A stretch of DNA of 64,000 nt from Clostridia bacterium (GTDB lineage: Bacteria; Bacillota; Clostridia; TANB77; CAG-508). Where the stretch lies: positions 135,628 through 199,627 of the forward strand of contig JAFXVF010000015.1 in NCBI GenBank assembly GCA_017524665.1, given 5' to 3'. Within the stretch, counting starts at the first letter, position 1, and each line of letters opens with the position of its first letter. A model generated the notes under the pieces. That model had not been told where the DNA came from, ran no database searches, and saw nothing but the letters and a program-made list of their open reading frames with translations. The position numbers and the translations under genes were made by a program. Below are positions 2,312 to 50,082 of the stretch, one piece after another.

Positions 2312-3535
2312 TTACACTCCTAAAATTTTTCTTTTAGCTTCGTCAAATTCTTCTTGAGAAATTACACCATCATCTAATAATTTTTTCATTTTTGCTAATT
2401 TTTCATATGGATCTTCTGCTTGAGCTGCCGGTTGTACTGGTTGTGCTGGCTGAGCAGCTGCTGGTTGTTGTACTGGTTGTTGGAATGCTCCCATTGTTGC
2501 ACCTACGCTATTAATTCCCATTCCCATAAATCCAAGTCCTGTTCCTCCACCATTTTCTCCTGCTGCTTGGAATCCACGTGCAACTGATTGTTGCATAAAT
2601 GAATTTCCTCTTGCTCCTGATAAAGCATCTGCTTTCTTAACGTCGCTAAGAAGCTTCTTAGAATCTTCGTCATATTCTATAGCTGTTATAGCAACTTTTA
2701 CTATTTCTAATCCTCTATCAGATTTCCATTGATATCCTTGTTCTACAGCATATGATAAGCTTTGTGCAAATCCTATTTGATCTCCTTGTATTTTTGTTAT
2801 ACGATTTCCCTTGCTTGGATCGTTTGTATAATTAGAAAATGCTGCTGAAAGGCTTCCAACTACTTCATTGAATAATTGCTCTCCTGCAACGTTATCCATA
2901 TCTGCAAAATCAAATGGTCCAGATTCTGGTCTTAAGTATTCTACTGGTACGAAATTCTTTACAAATAAAATTGGATCAACAATTTTTAATGTATATGTTC
3001 CTCTTGTTACAGCTCCAACTTGTGCATTCATGTATGCATCATCCCAGTAAATTTCAGATTGTGTTCCAAATCTGTTTCCTGGTATTTCCTTTAAATTTAC
3101 ATATATTGCTGTTTGCTCTGTTGCTGGTATTCCACCAAATTTAAATCTTTCCCATGATGCTTTAAGTGAACTCATTATTCCATTTCCAGCTAAGAATGAC
3201 TGAGAATTTGGATCTGTTGAAGAATAAATAAATCCTCCTGGCTCTGTAATACATCCTGTTATAGCTCCATCTTGCATTGTAATTAAAGCTGTTCCTTCTG
3301 GTACAACTATTTTGCTTCCGTTTGAAATAACATTCTCAGATCCTTTTACGTTTGCTCCTCTTCCAGCATCAGTACTATTTTTAACTGCTTTATATATAGC
3401 AGCAGTTGCTGGTACATTTGTTTCTGGAGTCATAAACTCCTTCCATTCATCTGCTAGTGTTCCGCCTAGCGCTCCTGTAAATGCTTTAATAAATCCCATG
3501 TTAGTTTCCTCCTCTAATATTATATTTGCTTGCAT
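2312..3535 (-). CDS. SPFH/band-7-like protein (COG4260 'virion core protein'-like, YdjI-like) with C-terminal SHOCT domain
   Basis: 407 aa. The N-terminal MGFIKAFTGALGG... and overall layout resemble COG4260 SPFH-like proteins. The Q/P/A-rich linker is followed by a ...EDPYEKLAKMKKLLDDGVISQEEFDEAKRKILGV tail typical of SHOCT. Confidence 0.55.
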   Translation of the reverse strand: MQANIILEEETNMGFIKAFTGALGGTLADEWKEFMTPETNVPATAAIYKAVKNSTDAGRGANVKGSENVISNGSKIVVPEGTALITMQDGAITGCITEPGGFIYSSTDPNSQSFLAGNGIMSSLKASWERFKFGGIPATEQTAIYVNLKEIPGNRFGTQSEIYWDDAYMNAQVGAVTRGTYTLKIVDPILFVKNFVPVEYLRPESGPFDFADMDNVAGEQLFNEVVGSLSAAFSNYTNDPSKGNRITKIQGDQIGFAQSLSYAVEQGYQWKSDRGLEIVKVAITAIEYDEDSKKLLSDVKKADALSGARGNSFMQQSVARGFQAAGENGGGTGLGFMGMGINSVGATMGAFQQPVQQPAAAQPAQPVQPAAQAEDPYEKLAKMKKLLDDGVISQEEFDEAKRKILGV

Positions 3536-3587: not shown

Positions 3588-3620
3588 GAAACGTTTGGGA
3601 CGATTCCAAACGTTTCAAAA
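3588..3620. terminator. bidirectional intrinsic terminator hairpin (gaaacgtttggg-acgatt-ccaaacgtttc)
   Basis: 11-12 bp perfect stem with A/T-rich flanks. The same palindrome recurs at 10048-10078. Confidence 0.6.
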
Positions 3621-8822: not shown

Positions 8823-10040
8823 ATGTCTAACGTTTTTGATATATTAGAAGAACGTGGTTATGTTGAACAACTAACCGACGAAAAAGAAGTACGTGCTATG
8901 TTTGATAAAGGAAGCATTCCATTTTATATTGGTTTTGACCCAACTGCAGATAGTCTTCATGTTGGTCACTTTGTTTCTATGATGGTTGCATCTCATATGC
9001 AAAAGTGCGGACACAAACCAATTATATTAATTGGTGGTGGTACTGCAAGTATTGGAGATCCATCAGGAAAAACTGATATGAGAAAAATGATGACACGTGA
9101 AGTAATTGACCATAACGTTGCATGTTTTAAAGTTCAACTTTCAAAGTTTTTAGATTTTGAAGGTGATAATGCTGCAATTATAGTAAACAACGCAGATTGG
9201 CTTTGCAATTTAAACTATATTGATTTTATGAGAGATATTGGAAGTAAATTCTCAGTTAATAGAATGCTTGCTGCTGAATGCTATAAATCAAGACTAGATA
9301 CTGGTTTAACTTTCTTAGAAATGGGATACATGTTACTACAATCATACGACTTTTTATATTTATATGACCATTATGGATGCAAGCTTGAAATGGGTGGAAA
9401 TGATCAATGGTCTAATATAATTGGCGGAGTTGAATTAGTTAGAAAAATAGGTCACTCAGATGCTTATGGTTTAACTTTCCGTCTTCTTACTACAAAAGAA
9501 GGTAAAAAGATGGGTAAAACTGAAAAAGGTGCATTATGGCTTGACCCAGAAAAAACATCTCCTTATGAATTTTATCAATACTGGAGAAATATTGATGATG
9601 CAGACGTACGTACAGTATTAAGCCTACTTACATTCTTACCAATGGATGAAGTTAATCGTTTGTCTAATTTAAAAGATGAGCAAATAAATGAAGCTAAAAA
9701 AGTTGCTGCGTTTGAAATAACAAAATTAATTCACGGTGAAGTTGAAGCAAGAAAAGCTGAAGAAGCTGCTTCTGCTCTATTTGGTGGAAATGGTGGAAGT
9801 ATAGAAAATATGCCTTGTGAAAAAGTTGATTCTACTTCTATTTCAATTGTAGATGCTGTTGTTACTGCAAAACTTGCTCCTTCAAAAGGACAAGCAAAAA
9901 CATTGATATCTCAAGGTGCTGTAACATTAAATGACGAAAAAATATCTGATATAGGATATATGTTATCTGATAAAGACTTTAGCGAAGGATACGCTATTTT
10001 AAGAAAAGGAAAGAAAAATTATTGTAAATTAGAAAAATAA
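8823..10040 (+). CDS. tyrS: tyrosine--tRNA ligase
   Basis: HIGH-class motif (HVGH), KMGKT (KMSKS), and a C-terminal S4-like domain. The RBS AAGGAG lies 8 nt upstream of ATG 8823; the ORF track begins at an upstream GTG at 8814. Confidence 0.93.
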
Positions 10041-10047
10041 AAAAGTG

Positions 10048-10078
10048 AAACGTTTGGCATGATTCCAAACGTTTCATT
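10048..10078. terminator. bidirectional terminator hairpin (gaaacgtttggc-atgatt-ccaaacgtttc) + T-tract
   Basis: Perfect palindrome followed by tttttttt. It separates convergent tyrS and clpX and is near-identical to the 3588-3620 hairpin. Confidence 0.65.
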
Positions 10079-10082
10079 TTTT

Positions 10083-11393
10083 TTATGCTGTTTGATTGTT
10101 TCTTTTTTGCTCTACTTTTCTTTTTGAAATTTTCTTTGTTGTTTCTCTATTTTCATTTATTACAAGTTTTGGCTCTACTTTCTTTTCTACTGTTTCTTTT
10201 GTAATAATACATGTTTCTATTTTAGGATTTGATGGTATTTCAAACATGATGTCTCTCATTACATCTTCTATTATAGAACGTAATCCTCTTGCTCCAGTAT
10301 TTCTTTCAATTGCTTTGTCAACAATTAAATTTAATGCTTCTGGCTCAAATTCTAGATTTACATTATCAAGTTTAAATAGTTTCTTATATTGCTTTACAAG
10401 CGCATTCTTAGGCTCTGTTACTATCTTTATTAGTGCTTCTCTATCTAGTTCTCTTAATGTTGCTATTATAGGAAGTCTTCCAACAAATTCAGGTATAAGT
10501 CCAAATTTTAATAAATCTTGAGGTAACAATTCTTCAAATACCTTGTATTTGTCTATTTCTTTTTTGCTTTCTATATGTGCTCCAAAGCCTATTGATTTTT
10601 GGCCTATTCTATCTTTAATTATTTTTTCAAGTCCTTCAAATGCACCACCACATATAAATAAAATGTTTTCTGTGTTGATTTGTAAGAATTCTTGATGAGG
10701 ATGTTTTCTTCCACCTTGTGGAGGTACTGAAGCTGTTGTTCCTTCAACTATTTTTAAAAGTGCTTGCTGTACTCCTTCTCCACTAACGTCTCTTGTTATA
10801 GATGGATTTTCTGATTTTCTTGAAATCTTATCAATTTCATCTATATATATAATACCTCTTTCAGCTTTGCTTATGTCATAATCAGCTGCCTGAATAAGCT
10901 TTAAAAGTATGTTTTCAACGTCTTCTCCAACATATCCAGCTTCTGTAAGTGTTGTTGCATCAGCTATTGCAAAAGGAACATCCAATATCTTAGCTAATGT
11001 TCTTGCTAAATATGTTTTTCCACATCCTGTAGGTCCTAATAGTAATACATTGCTTTTTTGAATCTCTACATCATTATCCTTTTTATTATCTTCTGCATTA
11101 ATTCTTTTATAGTGGTTATATACAGCAACTGCCAAAGTTTTCTTTGCATCTTCCTGGCCTATTATATATTCGTCAAGCACTGCTTTTATTTCTTTTGGAC
11201 TTGGAATGTGTTCTTCTGATATATTGTATTCCATTTCGTCTTCTAGGAATTCATCTTCAATTATTTTATTGCATACGTTTATACATTCATCACATATAAA
11301 TACATTTGGCCCTGCAATTATTTTCTTAACACTTTCTTGTGGTTTCCCACAAAAAGAGCATCTGATATTTTTTTCTTTTTCGTTTTTTTGCAT
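10083..11393 (-). CDS. clpX: ATP-dependent Clp protease ATP-binding subunit ClpX
   Basis: N-terminal Zn-finger (CSFCGK...CDEC) and AAA+ Walker A (GPTGCGKT). Confidence 0.95.
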
Positions 11394-41255: not shown

Positions 41256-43346
41256 ATGTTTGAGAAAGGATCGATATTTATGCTAAGTTTTTCAAAAAAA
41301 TCTGAAGTAAAAAAAGCTATTTCTAGCGAAAGAGAATTAATTAGTTCATATAAAGACTATGAACTTGGAATGAAAGAAACTGTAGAAACATATCTTTCAG
41401 AGTTTAATAATGTGTGTTTTGATAATGACACTTTTAAAACCATGCTTGTAAATAACTTTGAAAACGCGACAACACAATTAGATAATAACATTTTAGATAT
41501 CGAGTCAGTTGAAAATGTTCTAGACATTTTGGAATCACAAAAAGACATATCTACTACTGATGTTGAAACATATAATAAGCTTTTAGAAAAAACTAGAAAA
41601 GATATTGAACTTACTCAAAACTTTATGCAAAAGACTGTAAGTTGTTTTGAAAACATTAGTATGTCAGGAAAGAAAAAATCTATTGCTATATTAGAAGAAT
41701 GCAAAGGTGTAATATTAAATGAATTTCCTTTCTCTAATGTAGTACCTGAACATCAAGAAGTTAAAGAAGTTGTTGAGGAAAAACCTCAAAAGAAAATAGA
41801 GATAAAGTCAAAAACAATTAAAAAGACATTTGACTATGCTTCTTCTGACTTGTTGTGCTTCTTCCCTAAAGATAAAAACGATAACTTAGTTTTGTCAACA
41901 ATTCAGGATAATTATAAAATTTCGTTTAATGATGCAACTGCAACAATTTCAATAGAAAAAGAAAACTTTAATATTTCATTAAATACTCCAGGAGTTCAAA
42001 TTTCAAATTCTAATACAAATAATATACTTTATGTATCACATGCTGGAGGCAAATACACAATAATCACAAATAATCAAATTGAAATACCATATTTTATACA
42101 AGTTTCAAAAGTTGCAAAAAATGACGATTTTCTTGAAATTGAAATTGCTCGCGATAGCTTAACATTAGATGTCGAAGATAATATTTTAAATTTTGAAGAT
42201 AATGAACAAAAAAATAATGTATTCAAAAATATACCTATAAATGATGCAGATGAAATAGTTGAAACAGCACCAGTTAGTAAAGTAAATACTGCTGCTATTA
42301 AAGAAGATTGGTCAAAGAAAAAAATAGTTGAAGACGCTGAGCCTGTTTTATTACCTGGATTAGAGCCAGAAGCAGAAATCGAGCCAGAGCCAGAACCTGT
42401 ACCAGTAGTTAATAAAGTAGAACCTAAGGTAATACCTGTTGCTGTTCCAGAAATAGCACCAACAGCTCCTCAGACTACAGCTGCTCAAGTTGCTACTACT
42501 TCTGCTATAGAAGCCCCAGTTCAAAGTGAACCTGTTCAGCCTGTAACAATACAGCAAACAATTCCAGCACAACCTGCTGTTGCAGAACCAATTGTTCAAG
42601 CTCAAACTGCTACAGTTGCACAACCTGCTGTTACTGTTCAGCCAGCCACTGTTGCACAACCAGTTGTTGCACAGCCAGCAGTTGCTACACCTGTTATTAA
42701 TCCTCAAGTTAATGTTGTACCACAACCAGCCGTTGCACCTCAAGTTGACACTTCAACAGTAGTAGCTATACCTCAGGTTGCACCTGTTCAACAAGTTGTT
42801 ACTCCTCAGGTTAACCCAGTGCAAACAGTCGTTGCTCCTCAAACTGAAGTAGTAAATCCAGTTGTTGCACCTCAAGCAGATCAAGTACAAGAAAGCGCAA
42901 ATACTGGTAAACATTCAGCCGAAGGATATGAAAGTGAAATTGGAGACAATGATACATTAATCATTTCAGATACAAATAAAACAGTTATATTGCCTTACAA
43001 AATTGCAGATTTGGAAAAGAAATTACAAAAGAGTAAAAAATATAAAACATTAAAAGATGTTGTAGATGCAGAATATACTATTCCTATCGATACATTTAAA
43101 AATCCAGTTAAGTCAAGATTTAGAGAAGCATTCCAGTTAATAAAGAAAAAAGAGCATGGTTCTCTTAAAGAAGCTGTGGGATTAGGATTTGAATTAATGT
43201 TTCAGTCAAATTTAAATCCAGCTGTAATAGCTGCATGCAAAGATTTAGATGAACTAGACATTTATCTTGATTGCTTAGATGATAATGAGTTAGATAAATT
43301 CTCTTGTTTTAAGATTTCTTATGCAGTTCCACCATCAAAACATTAA
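41256..43346 (+). CDS. hypothetical protein with about 230-aa P/Q/V/A-rich low-complexity tract
   Basis: 696 aa, no signal peptide. The central tract carries (PQVNVVPQPAVA...)-type repeats. Terminator hairpin at 43354-43400. Confidence 0.5.
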   Translation: MFEKGSIFMLSFSKKSEVKKAISSERELISSYKDYELGMKETVETYLSEFNNVCFDNDTFKTMLVNNFENATTQLDNNILDIESVENVLDILESQKDISTTDVETYNKLLEKTRKDIELTQNFMQKTVSCFENISMSGKKKSIAILEECKGVILNEFPFSNVVPEHQEVKEVVEEKPQKKIEIKSKTIKKTFDYASSDLLCFFPKDKNDNLVLSTIQDNYKISFNDATATISIEKENFNISLNTPGVQISNSNTNNILYVSHAGGKYTIITNNQIEIPYFIQVSKVAKNDDFLEIEIARDSLTLDVEDNILNFEDNEQKNNVFKNIPINDADEIVETAPVSKVNTAAIKEDWSKKKIVEDAEPVLLPGLEPEAEIEPEPEPVPVVNKVEPKVIPVAVPEIAPTAPQTTAAQVATTSAIEAPVQSEPVQPVTIQQTIPAQPAVAEPIVQAQTATVAQPAVTVQPATVAQPVVAQPAVATPVINPQVNVVPQPAVAPQVDTSTVVAIPQVAPVQQVVTPQVNPVQTVVAPQTEVVNPVVAPQADQVQESANTGKHSAEGYESEIGDNDTLIISDTNKTVILPYKIADLEKKLQKSKKYKTLKDVVDAEYTIPIDTFKNPVKSRFREAFQLIKKKEHGSLKEAVGLGFELMFQSNLNPAVIAACKDLDELDIYLDCLDDNELDKFSCFKISYAVPPSKH

Positions 43347-43353
43347 TAAAGTT

Positions 43354-43400
43354 AAAGACTTGATAATTTATAATTATCAAGTCTTTTTTTATATTTTGAT
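43354..43400. terminator. bidirectional terminator (aagacttgataat-ttat-aattatcaagtctt + T-tract)
   Basis: 13-bp perfect stem followed by ttttttt. Confidence 0.6.
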
Positions 43401-48615: not shown

Positions 48616-48631
48616 TTAATTTGAGAAAAAT

Positions 48632-48717
48632 TGAGACTAAGATAAATTTGGGGACGTGTCTAAAAATTACCAATTGTGGTAATTTTTAGACACGTCCCCA
48701 AATTTATCTTAGTCTCA
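48632..48717. repeat. 41-bp perfect inverted repeat (hairpin, 4-nt loop attg) between convergent genes
   Basis: tgagactaagataaatttggggacgtgtctaaaaattacca / tggtaatttttagacacgtccccaaatttatcttagtctca. No mismatches over 41 bp. Confidence 0.8.
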
Positions 48718-48724
48718 TCTTACT

Positions 48725-49402
48725 TTAGCTTGTTGCTGGAGTTATCGGTTGATCTTGATGTTGTATAACAGTTATTCTAATGATTGCCTGAATTACAGGT
48801 TCTCCATTATTGTCTTCATAATACTCATATGCTCTTGTACCATAATCTGTATCGGTTTCATCATCACCTGTTTCATATGCCCACCCAAATCTGATTGAAA
48901 TTGAACTACTCTGTCCAGTCTGCAACGTTGCTTGAGCTGTCTGTACAGTAATTTGAAACGGAAAATCATTTTGTAATTTGCTTAGTAATTGTGCTGCTGT
49001 TTGTACTGTTGCTCCCTGTGGAGTGCTTCCCAGTTCTTGAACATATTCTGAAGAATAATATTCATCATCAAATATTCTAATATATTTTACCATGTATGTT
49101 ATGTCTGCTGGTCTTTCTCCAGAGTTTCTTATATCTACAGTTTGAACCCTGTCTTGCATTCCAGGATATGCATGAGTAATAACAAAATTAAACTCTCTTT
49201 CGACCATTTCTTCATCTACTTCAAACTCAACTCTCCACGCATCAACGTGTGCAGTTAAGTTTGTAGATACAGTAGTTGCATATAAAAACCATGCATATGT
49301 ATTAAATATAAGAGTAACTGATAGCAAAAAAAGTGTACGCAAAGTGACTCTATGTTTTCTTCGTCTCTCTTTTCGATTAAGCCTATGATGCTTCCTAGCC
49401 AC
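48725..49402 (-). CDS. TasA-like secreted protein with SipW-cognate-class signal peptide
   Basis: Highly basic N-terminus (MARKHHRLNRKERRRKHR) + TM + NTYAWFLYATTVS. Confidence 0.55.
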   Translation of the reverse strand: MARKHHRLNRKERRRKHRVTLRTLFLLSVTLIFNTYAWFLYATTVSTNLTAHVDAWRVEFEVDEEMVEREFNFVITHAYPGMQDRVQTVDIRNSGERPADITYMVKYIRIFDDEYYSSEYVQELGSTPQGATVQTAAQLLSKLQNDFPFQITVQTAQATLQTGQSSSISIRFGWAYETGDDETDTDYGTRAYEYYEDNNGEPVIQAIIRITVIQHQDQPITPATS

Positions 49403-49419: not shown

Positions 49420-50082
49420 TTACTCTTGTTTCTTTCTTCTTTTTTCTCTTCTCTCTCTTCTTTTATTTCTTTTTGCTTTTCTTTTTTCTTTTTCCTTTTC
49501 AAGCTTTTTTTGTTTTTTATCAGTTATTTCCCCTGTTTTTTCATCTTCAGAATCTTCTTTTTTATCTTTTTTATAATTTATAAATTCAAAAAATATCATA
49601 ATTGCCATTGGCACAACAATTACAAAATACATTCCATACAAGTTGCCTATAATTCCATTAATAAATGAAATTGACTTTATTTTATATATAACCTTACCAT
49701 ATACTTGGGTCTCATTTATTGCTGGGTCTGCTTTGTCATTTGCTATACCTTTTGTTACAATTTTATAGCTTCCGTCTTTGTTTTTGCTTATTTTTTCTAT
49801 CCTGTGCGTAACTATCCTATCTTTAAAAGAATCTTTTTCACCTAAATATGTAATGTCATCTCCCTGTTGTAATTCCTCTGGTTCTACGGATTTTATAAGA
49901 AGTGCATCACCTACTAAATATTTAGGCTTCATACTTTCTGTAGCAACAGTAAAAATTCTTATACCTGCAATAGCCATTTTATTGTCCGAAAGTCTTTGAG
50001 TTAATACAACCGCAAGCAATGCTACTAGTACAATAGTAAGTAAAAATCTAATTACCGCATAGATTGTCCTCAAAATTTTCAT
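49420..50082 (-). CDS. signal peptidase I, SipW-type (archaeal/ER-type, Ser/His)
   Basis: N-terminal TM, then ATESMKPKY (SM-box). The VTHRIEKI (catalytic His), KGIANDKAD box, second TM and KEKEKRKAKRNKRRERR tail follow. Its start overlaps the upstream gene stop by 4 nt. Confidence 0.75.
   Translation of the reverse strand: MKILRTIYAVIRFLLTIVLVALLAVVLTQRLSDNKMAIAGIRIFTVATESMKPKYLVGDALLIKSVEPEELQQGDDITYLGEKDSFKDRIVTHRIEKISKNKDGSYKIVTKGIANDKADPAINETQVYGKVIYKIKSISFINGIIGNLYGMYFVIVVPMAIMIFFEFINYKKDKKEDSEDEKTGEITDKKQKKLEKEKEKRKAKRNKRRERREKRRKKQE

Follow-up and report, generated by a model that had tools for sequence, protein, structure and literature searches.

Within the 64-kb stretch of DNA analyzed here (the window; G+C content ~30%), which comes from the NCBI MAG of an uncultured rumen Clostridia bacterium with the locus tag IKP28_05615, the ORF coordinates place two genes, A and B, in convergent orientation, as the first-pass annotation had described, and the spacer of 109 nt between them contains a palindrome of 41 bp as its only hairpin (Table 1). 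The stem of this palindrome starts 16 nt past the TAA stop codon of A and ends 7 nt ahead of the TAA stop codon of B. B closes a gene row that relatives retain as a block and that encodes a 335-aa protein, an McrB-like ATPase, a DUF2357 protein, a SipW-type signal peptidase and B itself; in the conserved order, B is followed by A and then by three further genes. The first three genes of the row (positions 50079-53745), of which the one for the 513-aa McrB-like AAA ATPase matches the PADLOC candidate PDC-M26A (1.4e-35), precede the genes for the SipW-type peptidase and the secreted proteins. The whole block keeps its synteny in all relatives and joins defence-like with secretion-like genes, an unusual combination. 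The McrB-like ATPase is the sole match of the cluster to a candidate defence family in PADLOC and has no bearing on the hairpin. The region 53758-56414 contains another S24/signal-peptidase-like gene (55194-55775; Peptidase_S24, 8.8e-08) amid small genes without family match, and it may represent a further cluster of the SipW-peptidase type.

Table 1. Features of the A/B junction and its neighbourhood, in positions of the 64-kb window.
Feature	Position	Strand	Remarks
Gene A, 222 aa	47947..48615	+	hydrophobic N-terminal segment; without family match; weak paralogue of B
Gene B transcript tail	48616..48631	-	ATTTTTCTCAAATTAA, 6 T in first 8
Left arm of palindrome, 41 nt	48632..48672		TGAGACTAAGATAAATTTGGGGACGTGTCTAAAAATTACCA
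Outer stem extension, 18 nt	48632..48649		partner 48700-48717
Inner core hairpin, 50 nt	48650..48699		GGGGACGTGTCTAAAAATTACCA-ATTG-TGGTAATTTTTAGACACGTCCCC
Loop ATTG, 4 nt	48673..48676		without self-complementarity
Right arm, 41 nt	48677..48717		exact reverse complement of left arm
Gene A transcript tail	48718..48729	+	TCTTACTTTAGC, 5 T in first 8; overlaps B stop codon 48725-48727
Gene B, 225 aa	48725..49402	-	last gene of conserved operon-like row including SipW-type peptidase
SipW/archaeal-type signal peptidase I	49420..50082	-	TIGR02228, 1.1e-22; directly upstream of B

The designation of A and B as TasA-like in the first-pass annotation could not be substantiated. Neither protein has a match in Pfam or NCBIfam, even at E <= 10, no PDB-sequence or fold match connects B to TasA or camelysin, and Pfam, NCBIfam and fold comparison give no support for placing A and B in the TasA/camelysin family (Peptidase_M73); the label goes back solely to the adjoining SipW-type peptidase. 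In its AF2 model (pLDDT 78), B consists of a helix at the N terminus and of beta strands, which we read as a putative beta-sandwich, and the fold matches of the model are weak and confined to generic beta-sandwiches. What is supported instead is a predicted SipW-type signal peptidase beside several weakly paralogous proteins with hydrophobic N-termini. It was also considered whether the palindrome is the remnant of an inverted duplication of A and B, and this was rejected because the two are only weak paralogues and because their DNA similarity outside the palindrome consists of a single match of 21 nt (86%), which is asymmetrically placed.

Recomputation reproduced the annotated inverted repeat exactly, as the two arms are 100% complementary with zero mismatches over 41 nt and form, together with the ATTG loop, an element of 86 nt, in which 14 of the 41 stem pairs are G-C. 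The very high stability that had been predicted for the hairpin was obtained as well, with -79.2 kcal/mol (z = -14.7) for the RNA fold of the plus strand, -71.6 kcal/mol (z = -15.1) for that of the minus strand, and -46.7 kcal/mol (z = -17.9) for the DNA fold. By our estimate, a 41/41 match with a short loop is expected by chance in the order of 1e-17 times per 64 kb, and the second-longest perfect hairpin stem in the window has 16 bp. The search for other copies of either arm, which had been proposed before, returned none outside of the element in the 64-kb window at <=3 mismatches, and likewise none in shuffled sequences. The palindrome is real and statistically extreme; it is of an ordinary kind, and its size is the main oddity.

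Position and surroundings of the element are those of a bidirectional terminator, a role that the first-pass annotation had listed among several and for which its location, its T-rich tails and the retention of a hairpin at this place in all relatives provide support. A transcript from either strand would fold the same 41-bp stem right after its stop codon and would then enter a U-rich tract. The stem-loop lies within a few tens of nucleotides of both convergent stop codons (16 and 7 nt), and a U-rich tract follows the stem on both strands, namely ATTTTTCT (6/8 T) on the minus strand and TCTTACTT (5/8 T), which is moderately U-rich and mediocre, on the plus strand; the longer sequences past the stem are AUUUUUCU for the B transcript and UCUUACUU for the A transcript. 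Moreover, the other convergent junctions of the window (~10040-10083, 43345-43395, and 61757-61804) contain hairpins consisting of A-tract, stem and T-tract with arms of 22-24 nt that are 83-91% complementary. Since these share position and design with the palindrome, the latter is built like the bidirectional terminators of this genome. Unlike them, it is flawless and nearly twice as long, which sets it apart from their imperfect arms as well as from any other perfect stem of the window. Typical terminator stems comprise ~5-15 bp, and 41 bp therefore far exceed what is needed for termination. A consensus terminator scan did not flag the site; the tool counts <=20 pairs, thus seeks the tail inside the 41-bp stem, and is unable to judge stems above 20 bp. 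Known bidirectional intrinsic terminators carry A and T tails that pair with each other (PMC1852404) and are more constrained than unidirectional ones (PMC5381666). The palindrome resembles them in being a single stem-loop directly after both stop codons, with an A-rich and a T-rich side and with tails that extend its pairing (PMC1852404), whereas its low share of G-C pairs is a difference, and its role as a terminator is predicted from sequence.

Orthologous loci were reached via homologs of B with the same gene order and comprise seven distinct species-level variants. A hairpin is present between B and A at every locus recovered, thus in 7/7 variants, with arms from 13 to ~59 bp, and no two species have the same hairpin sequence. 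With a B identity of 61%, the loci L079-81 have an ordinary 13-bp AAAAACCGTTTAG stem; L084-86 (65%) have a stem of ~27 bp with one mismatch, and L083 (71%) an imperfect one of ~30 bp. The loci L076-78 (84% over the half of B that is covered) have a ~20-bp GGGGACGTATTACATTGAC stem plus an imperfect outer stem with G-U pairs. At L074 (76%) there is a canonical terminator and additionally a long imperfect hairpin around a perfect 12-bp GGGGACAGGTT stem, and L070-73 (71%) have a canonical 16-bp terminator together with a giant hairpin of 36 to ~59 bp, which is built from GGGGACGGAGAAG/GACAC units. As the position is conserved while the sequence turns over, these loci fit an element that depends on structure, such as a terminator. 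The same palindrome conserved in distant relatives, which had been named as the observation that would speak for an ordinary, slowly diverging terminator, was not found; different hairpins occupy the same place. Since a separate canonical terminator stands beside the long GGGGAC-type hairpin in L070-73 and L074, the long hairpin is not the sole terminator there, and it may do something other than terminate.

The sister species represented by L070, L071, and L072 offers a view on how such perfect stems can arise. These are three assemblies of one species with identical B proteins, and their aligned intergenic sequences (L070 4653-4873, L071 3500-3700, L072 3368-3601) are identical except for two indels of 33 and 20 nt. 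The 33-nt insertion lies in the left arm of L072 and also of L073, whose intergenic sequence is identical to that of L072, and the 20-nt insertion lies in the right arm of L070. The segment specific to L072 has an exact reverse-complement match of 31 nt to the opposite arm, compared to 12 nt on the same strand, and the event extended the perfect stretch from 29 bp to 52 bp. Similarly, the L070 insertion with its context matches the reverse complement over 29 nt and the same strand over 22 nt; taken alone, the insertion is exact in the reverse complement and missing from the same strand. We regard these matches as direct evidence for inter-arm template-switch (quasipalindrome) events as the origin of the indels in the sister-species hairpin. 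Replication-associated template switching between the arms (quasipalindrome correction), in which one arm would be copied from the other, would homogenize and lengthen the stem, and template switching has been proposed to create and repair perfect stems (PMC8794818). Like known template-switch mutations, the insertions in the sister species copy the opposite arm and extend the perfect stem, and perfect arms are the expected outcome of such events (PMC8794818; PMC7202029). The process is visible as polymorphism in the sister species, and we infer that it has also made or kept the 41 bp of the window perfect. The window differs from a plain case of template switching in that switching within one hairpin leaves the sharing of a core between loci unexplained.

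A manual comparison with L076, the closest relative found, bears on the age of the stem. Its flank on the side of B reads ATGAGAGAAGCAAAT and then GGGGACGT, the outer arm of the window ATGAGACTAAGATAAATTT and then GGGGACGT, so that the outer copy proximal to B (48700-48717) resembles the B-side flank of L076. As the flanks of L076 pair imperfectly in our reading of the fold, the long outer stem was probably already present in the common ancestor with this relative and was then homogenized in the lineage of the window. By eye, the flanks fit both a fresh copy of 18 nt and a homogenized older imperfect stem, and automatic alignments are weak in this part. The earlier suggestion that the perfection implies recent origin or selection holds in a narrower version, in which the arms are made or kept perfect by copying from one to the other, as the sister-species polymorphisms indicate. 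We consider it probable, at roughly 60%, that the palindrome is an oversized bidirectional intrinsic (Rho-independent) terminator of A and B that is kept perfect by inter-arm template switching.

The interior of the palindrome is not confined to this locus. Its inner core of 22-23 nt, GGGGACGTGTCTAAAAATTA, is found again in related rumen MAGs, where it forms part of long perfect hairpins at junctions that are not orthologous. At the locus L002, which is the same as L011 and L092, a perfect hairpin of 25 bp with the core AATTGGGGACGTGTCTAAAA is located between glmS and a BofA gene. L022, found in a metagenome scan, has a perfect 34-bp hairpin whose loop measures 4 nt and whose core, GGGGACGTGTCTAAAAATTATCA, departs from that of the window in a compensated C-to-T/G-to-A change; its contig contains, at a distance of 3 kb, another hairpin of a related type, GGGGGACGCGTCTAA. 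The first 22 nt of the 50-nt core are common to the hairpins of L002/L011/L092 and L022. When a 20-mer from the core was searched against 185,579 species genomes, two Clostridia MAGs were matched and no more. In L003, an AT-rich Clostridia MAG, a single unpaired TTTGGGGACGTGTCTAAAAAT copy (3367-3386) lies ~200 nt upstream of a gene; as ~1 chance match of a 20-mer is expected by our estimate in 596 Gb, it is treated as uncertain, being either a chance match or a solitary family member. The metagenome scan for GGGGACGTGTC-N4-34-GACACGTCCCC gave 64 matches, mostly in unrelated contigs of moderate to high GC content, which we estimate to be compatible with a background of 11-bp terminator stems. 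Among these 64, the extended core is found only in the AT-rich L011 and L022, and the stem base in L036 and L039. Run SRR873608, a related sample beside the AUXO assembly, is one that we take to be a cow-rumen metagenome.

The contigs with the core have no genes in common with the window, and relatedness was therefore deduced via GlmS. L092 and L076 both come from assembly ERZ12302818 with coverages of 16.9x and 15.5x; since they share one assembly and have similar coverage, both probably belong to a single organism, which is the nearest relative identified. In this organism, the core is located at glmS, and the interior of the B/A hairpin is different. Contigs of run SRR12529283, which also holds the B gene of the window, encode a GlmS that is 80% identical to that of L002 and probably belong to the organism of the window, in which case its glmS junction bears a different hairpin. 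Identical 22-nt cores at non-orthologous sites together with diverged orthologous hairpins argue for copying between sites or genomes, and it is likely, as judged from these sequences, that the inner core was either swapped with other terminator hairpins in this clade or copied from them.

Such copying raises the question of mobility. The inner hairpin (GGGGACGTGTCTAAAAATTAYCA and its complement) could be a low-copy mobile or gene-converting palindromic cassette that moves among terminator sites, or among rumen Clostridia living together, and that would have replaced the ancestral interior at B/A, with termination as a by-product. We regard this as possible, though rather unlikely. The core in the 25-bp (L002/L092, glmS/bofA) and 34-bp (L022) hairpins speaks for it, as do its presence at glmS in the probable closest relative, whose B/A interior differs, and a second dispersed family of terminator hairpins, GAAACGTTTGG-N7-CCAAACGTTTC, in the same organism. 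Yet the window contains a single copy of the core, there is none further in L092 (21.8 kb) or in L090/L091, and target-site duplications are inconsistent, as the flanks are further palindrome (AAATTT and AATT, but GTTG/CAAC in L022). Furthermore, no transposase or RAYT is present among the nearby genes searched (~20 ORFs of the window), no members were found in viral contigs, plasmids or phages, and both L092/L076 and L090/window are assigned to single genomes by deduction.

The second family is represented by three copies in ~72 kb, each of which is a hairpin at the end of a gene. Its hairpins of 29-31 nt, (T)GAAACGTTTGG-GACGATT/CATGATT/GACGGTT-CCAAACGTTTC(A), are near-identical and lie at three unrelated gene ends of probably one organism (window 3588-3616, window 10046-10076, and L090 6906-6936). 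The GAAACGTTTGG word occurs only as hairpin pairs, with four exact copies in the window versus 0.44 chance matches (<=1 mismatch). Because a second hairpin family exists in the same organism, families of terminator hairpins may be a general feature of the genome. An extended version of this idea, which we hold to be speculative and rather improbable, is that the terminator hairpins of the clade are transposase-independent mobile or gene-converting cassettes that spread between unrelated gene ends and even co-resident species and then lengthen in place into long perfect palindromes. This would apply to the GGGGACGTGTCTAAAAATTA core and, independently, to the GAAACGTTTGG family, with template switching or micro-homology recombination at their common GGGGACG/CGTCCCC stem base as examples of a possible route.

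Known repeat classes match the element in part, and the REP, MITE and uptake-sequence readings each fail on a defining feature. Like the RAYT-mobilized REP/BIME elements, the palindrome is extragenic and lies where genes end, a position often between convergent genes, could act on mRNA 3' ends, and has related copies at unrelated loci. In contrast to the hundreds of imperfect palindromes per genome that are typical of REP/BIME, it is perfect and present once per 64 kb, with no copy in ~12 kb more of probably the same organism and one core hairpin in the 21.8 kb of L092; it also lacks a GTAG-type 5' signature, there is no RAYT among the genes searched, and no transposase among the ~20 window ORFs searched. 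A MITE was rejected, as the flanks of the core are AAATTT/AAATTT in the window, AATT/AATT in L002, and GTTG/CAAC in L022, and hence inverted and not direct repeats. The DUS/USS pairs of Neisseria and Pasteurellaceae (PMC1852404) are comparable in that one short word forms inverted pairs in terminator stems at unrelated genes, a likeness that fits the GAAACGTTTGG family best. They differ in that the words found here occur only as hairpin pairs at low density, with no solitary coding copies and without sign of competence-linked uptake. A terminator made of DNA uptake sequences was rejected for the palindrome, as its GGGGACGTGTCTAAAAA word is confined to the two arms instead of occurring ~1 time per kb. 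Searches in Rfam gave nothing above threshold; the weaker matches were to eukaryotic miRNA precursors, as generic long hairpins, and were rejected. Plasmid and phage BLAST of the element returned nothing relevant. Scans of viral contigs found no member of the hairpin family and two 16-mer matches that are apparently due to chance, and a literature search for the motif yielded only unrelated eukaryotic or viral papers, apparently with primer or sequence strings.

Two further repeats were seen in the course of these searches. Downstream of glmS (L002 4721-4860, corresponding to L092 11835-11960), next to the hairpin with the shared core, the final 12-13 nt of glmS (TATTCAACAGTT) occur twice. Between the two TATTCAACAGTT copies lies another hairpin, CCCAAAGGGGGA..TCCCCCTTTGGG, with a GTCCCC word on either side; this duplication of the glmS 3' end with its hairpin looks like a small insertion, as far as the sequence tells. 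The hairpin GGGGACGTGTCCGCGGACACGTCCCC recurs in most of the GC-rich metagenomic contigs L013, L028, L033, L045, L048, L049, L053, L057, L058, L065, and L068, several of which have neighboring GGGGACAGGT or AACGTCCCC/CCTGTCCC words, so that unrelated bacteria may possess a repeat family of their own.

Apart from termination, the duplex might act mainly on the level of RNA, as an RNase III site or as a block to 3'-exonucleases that would set the stability of the A and B mRNAs, similar to 3'UTR regulation by REP elements. RNase III needs roughly two helical turns, and the 41-bp stem is longer; on both transcripts, 41 bp of uninterrupted double-stranded RNA are predicted. In our reading of the fold, moreover, the outer stem of L076 keeps its pairing partly by G-U pairs, which are relevant in RNA only. 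For REP elements, a preprint (bioRxiv 10.64898/2026.03.23.713779) reports a dual regulatory action in the 3'UTR that depends on context and takes place at convergent genes. A post-transcriptional role of the 41-bp double strand, as RNase III substrate or 3' stabilizer, is thus plausible. However, such a role is compatible with the terminator and not exclusive of it, and that it is the main function of the element appears improbable to us.

We assign even less weight to a function on the level of DNA, be it as a cruciform, as a palindrome bound by a protein or as a site of site-specific recombination or inversion. A DNA hairpin with an AT-rich center is predicted at the energy given above, and a protein that binds in a sequence-specific manner could account for identical cores at unrelated sites. 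Against this, the sequence of the site is not conserved between species, unlike that of an operator, there is no partner site in the 64-kb window, and no recombinase was found among the neighboring genes searched. The recombination or inversion site considered in the first-pass annotation can be dismissed, as the arms enclose only 4 nt, so that an inversion would change nothing, and no second copy exists in the window; the comparison of relatives for inversions, also proposed there, revealed an identical gene order at the locus in all of them, with A and B convergent throughout. Cruciform or dsRNA roles are physically possible, and nothing points to either.

An assembly artefact was addressed with Logan contigs, which derive from a k=31 de Bruijn graph and were retrieved by look-up of the exact A and B proteins. 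In the runs SRR12529272, SRR12529283, and SRR31077518, the flank-to-arm junctions are present from both sides. L004 and L005 end 30 nt into the arm when approaching from B, and L001 ends at 48672, the last base of the arm when approaching from A, exactly there because the ATTG loop is not self-complementary. The contigs thus break as a k=31 graph must break at a true palindrome longer than k, which argues against an artefact. Although assemblers can generate perfect palindromes and every short-k contig breaks at this one, a fold-back or chimeric join is hardly credible in view of both junctions in three separate runs with the predicted break points, of the look-ups of A, B and the peptidase, which each list five index blocks with a longest contig of 0.2-1 Mb, and of the convergent A/B arrangement that is syntenic across all relatives.

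As a terminator, the palindrome is routine; its value is that it illustrates, cleanly and in nature, the origin and persistence of long perfect hairpins, and the alleles of the sister species are population-level evidence of template switching that shapes terminator stems. A practical effect is that the palindrome interrupts k=31 assemblies at this locus. If the copying of the core were confirmed, the reading of intergenic repeats in Firmicute MAGs would change, and if the terminator hairpins of the clade were indeed cassettes, terminators would be disseminated without a transposase.
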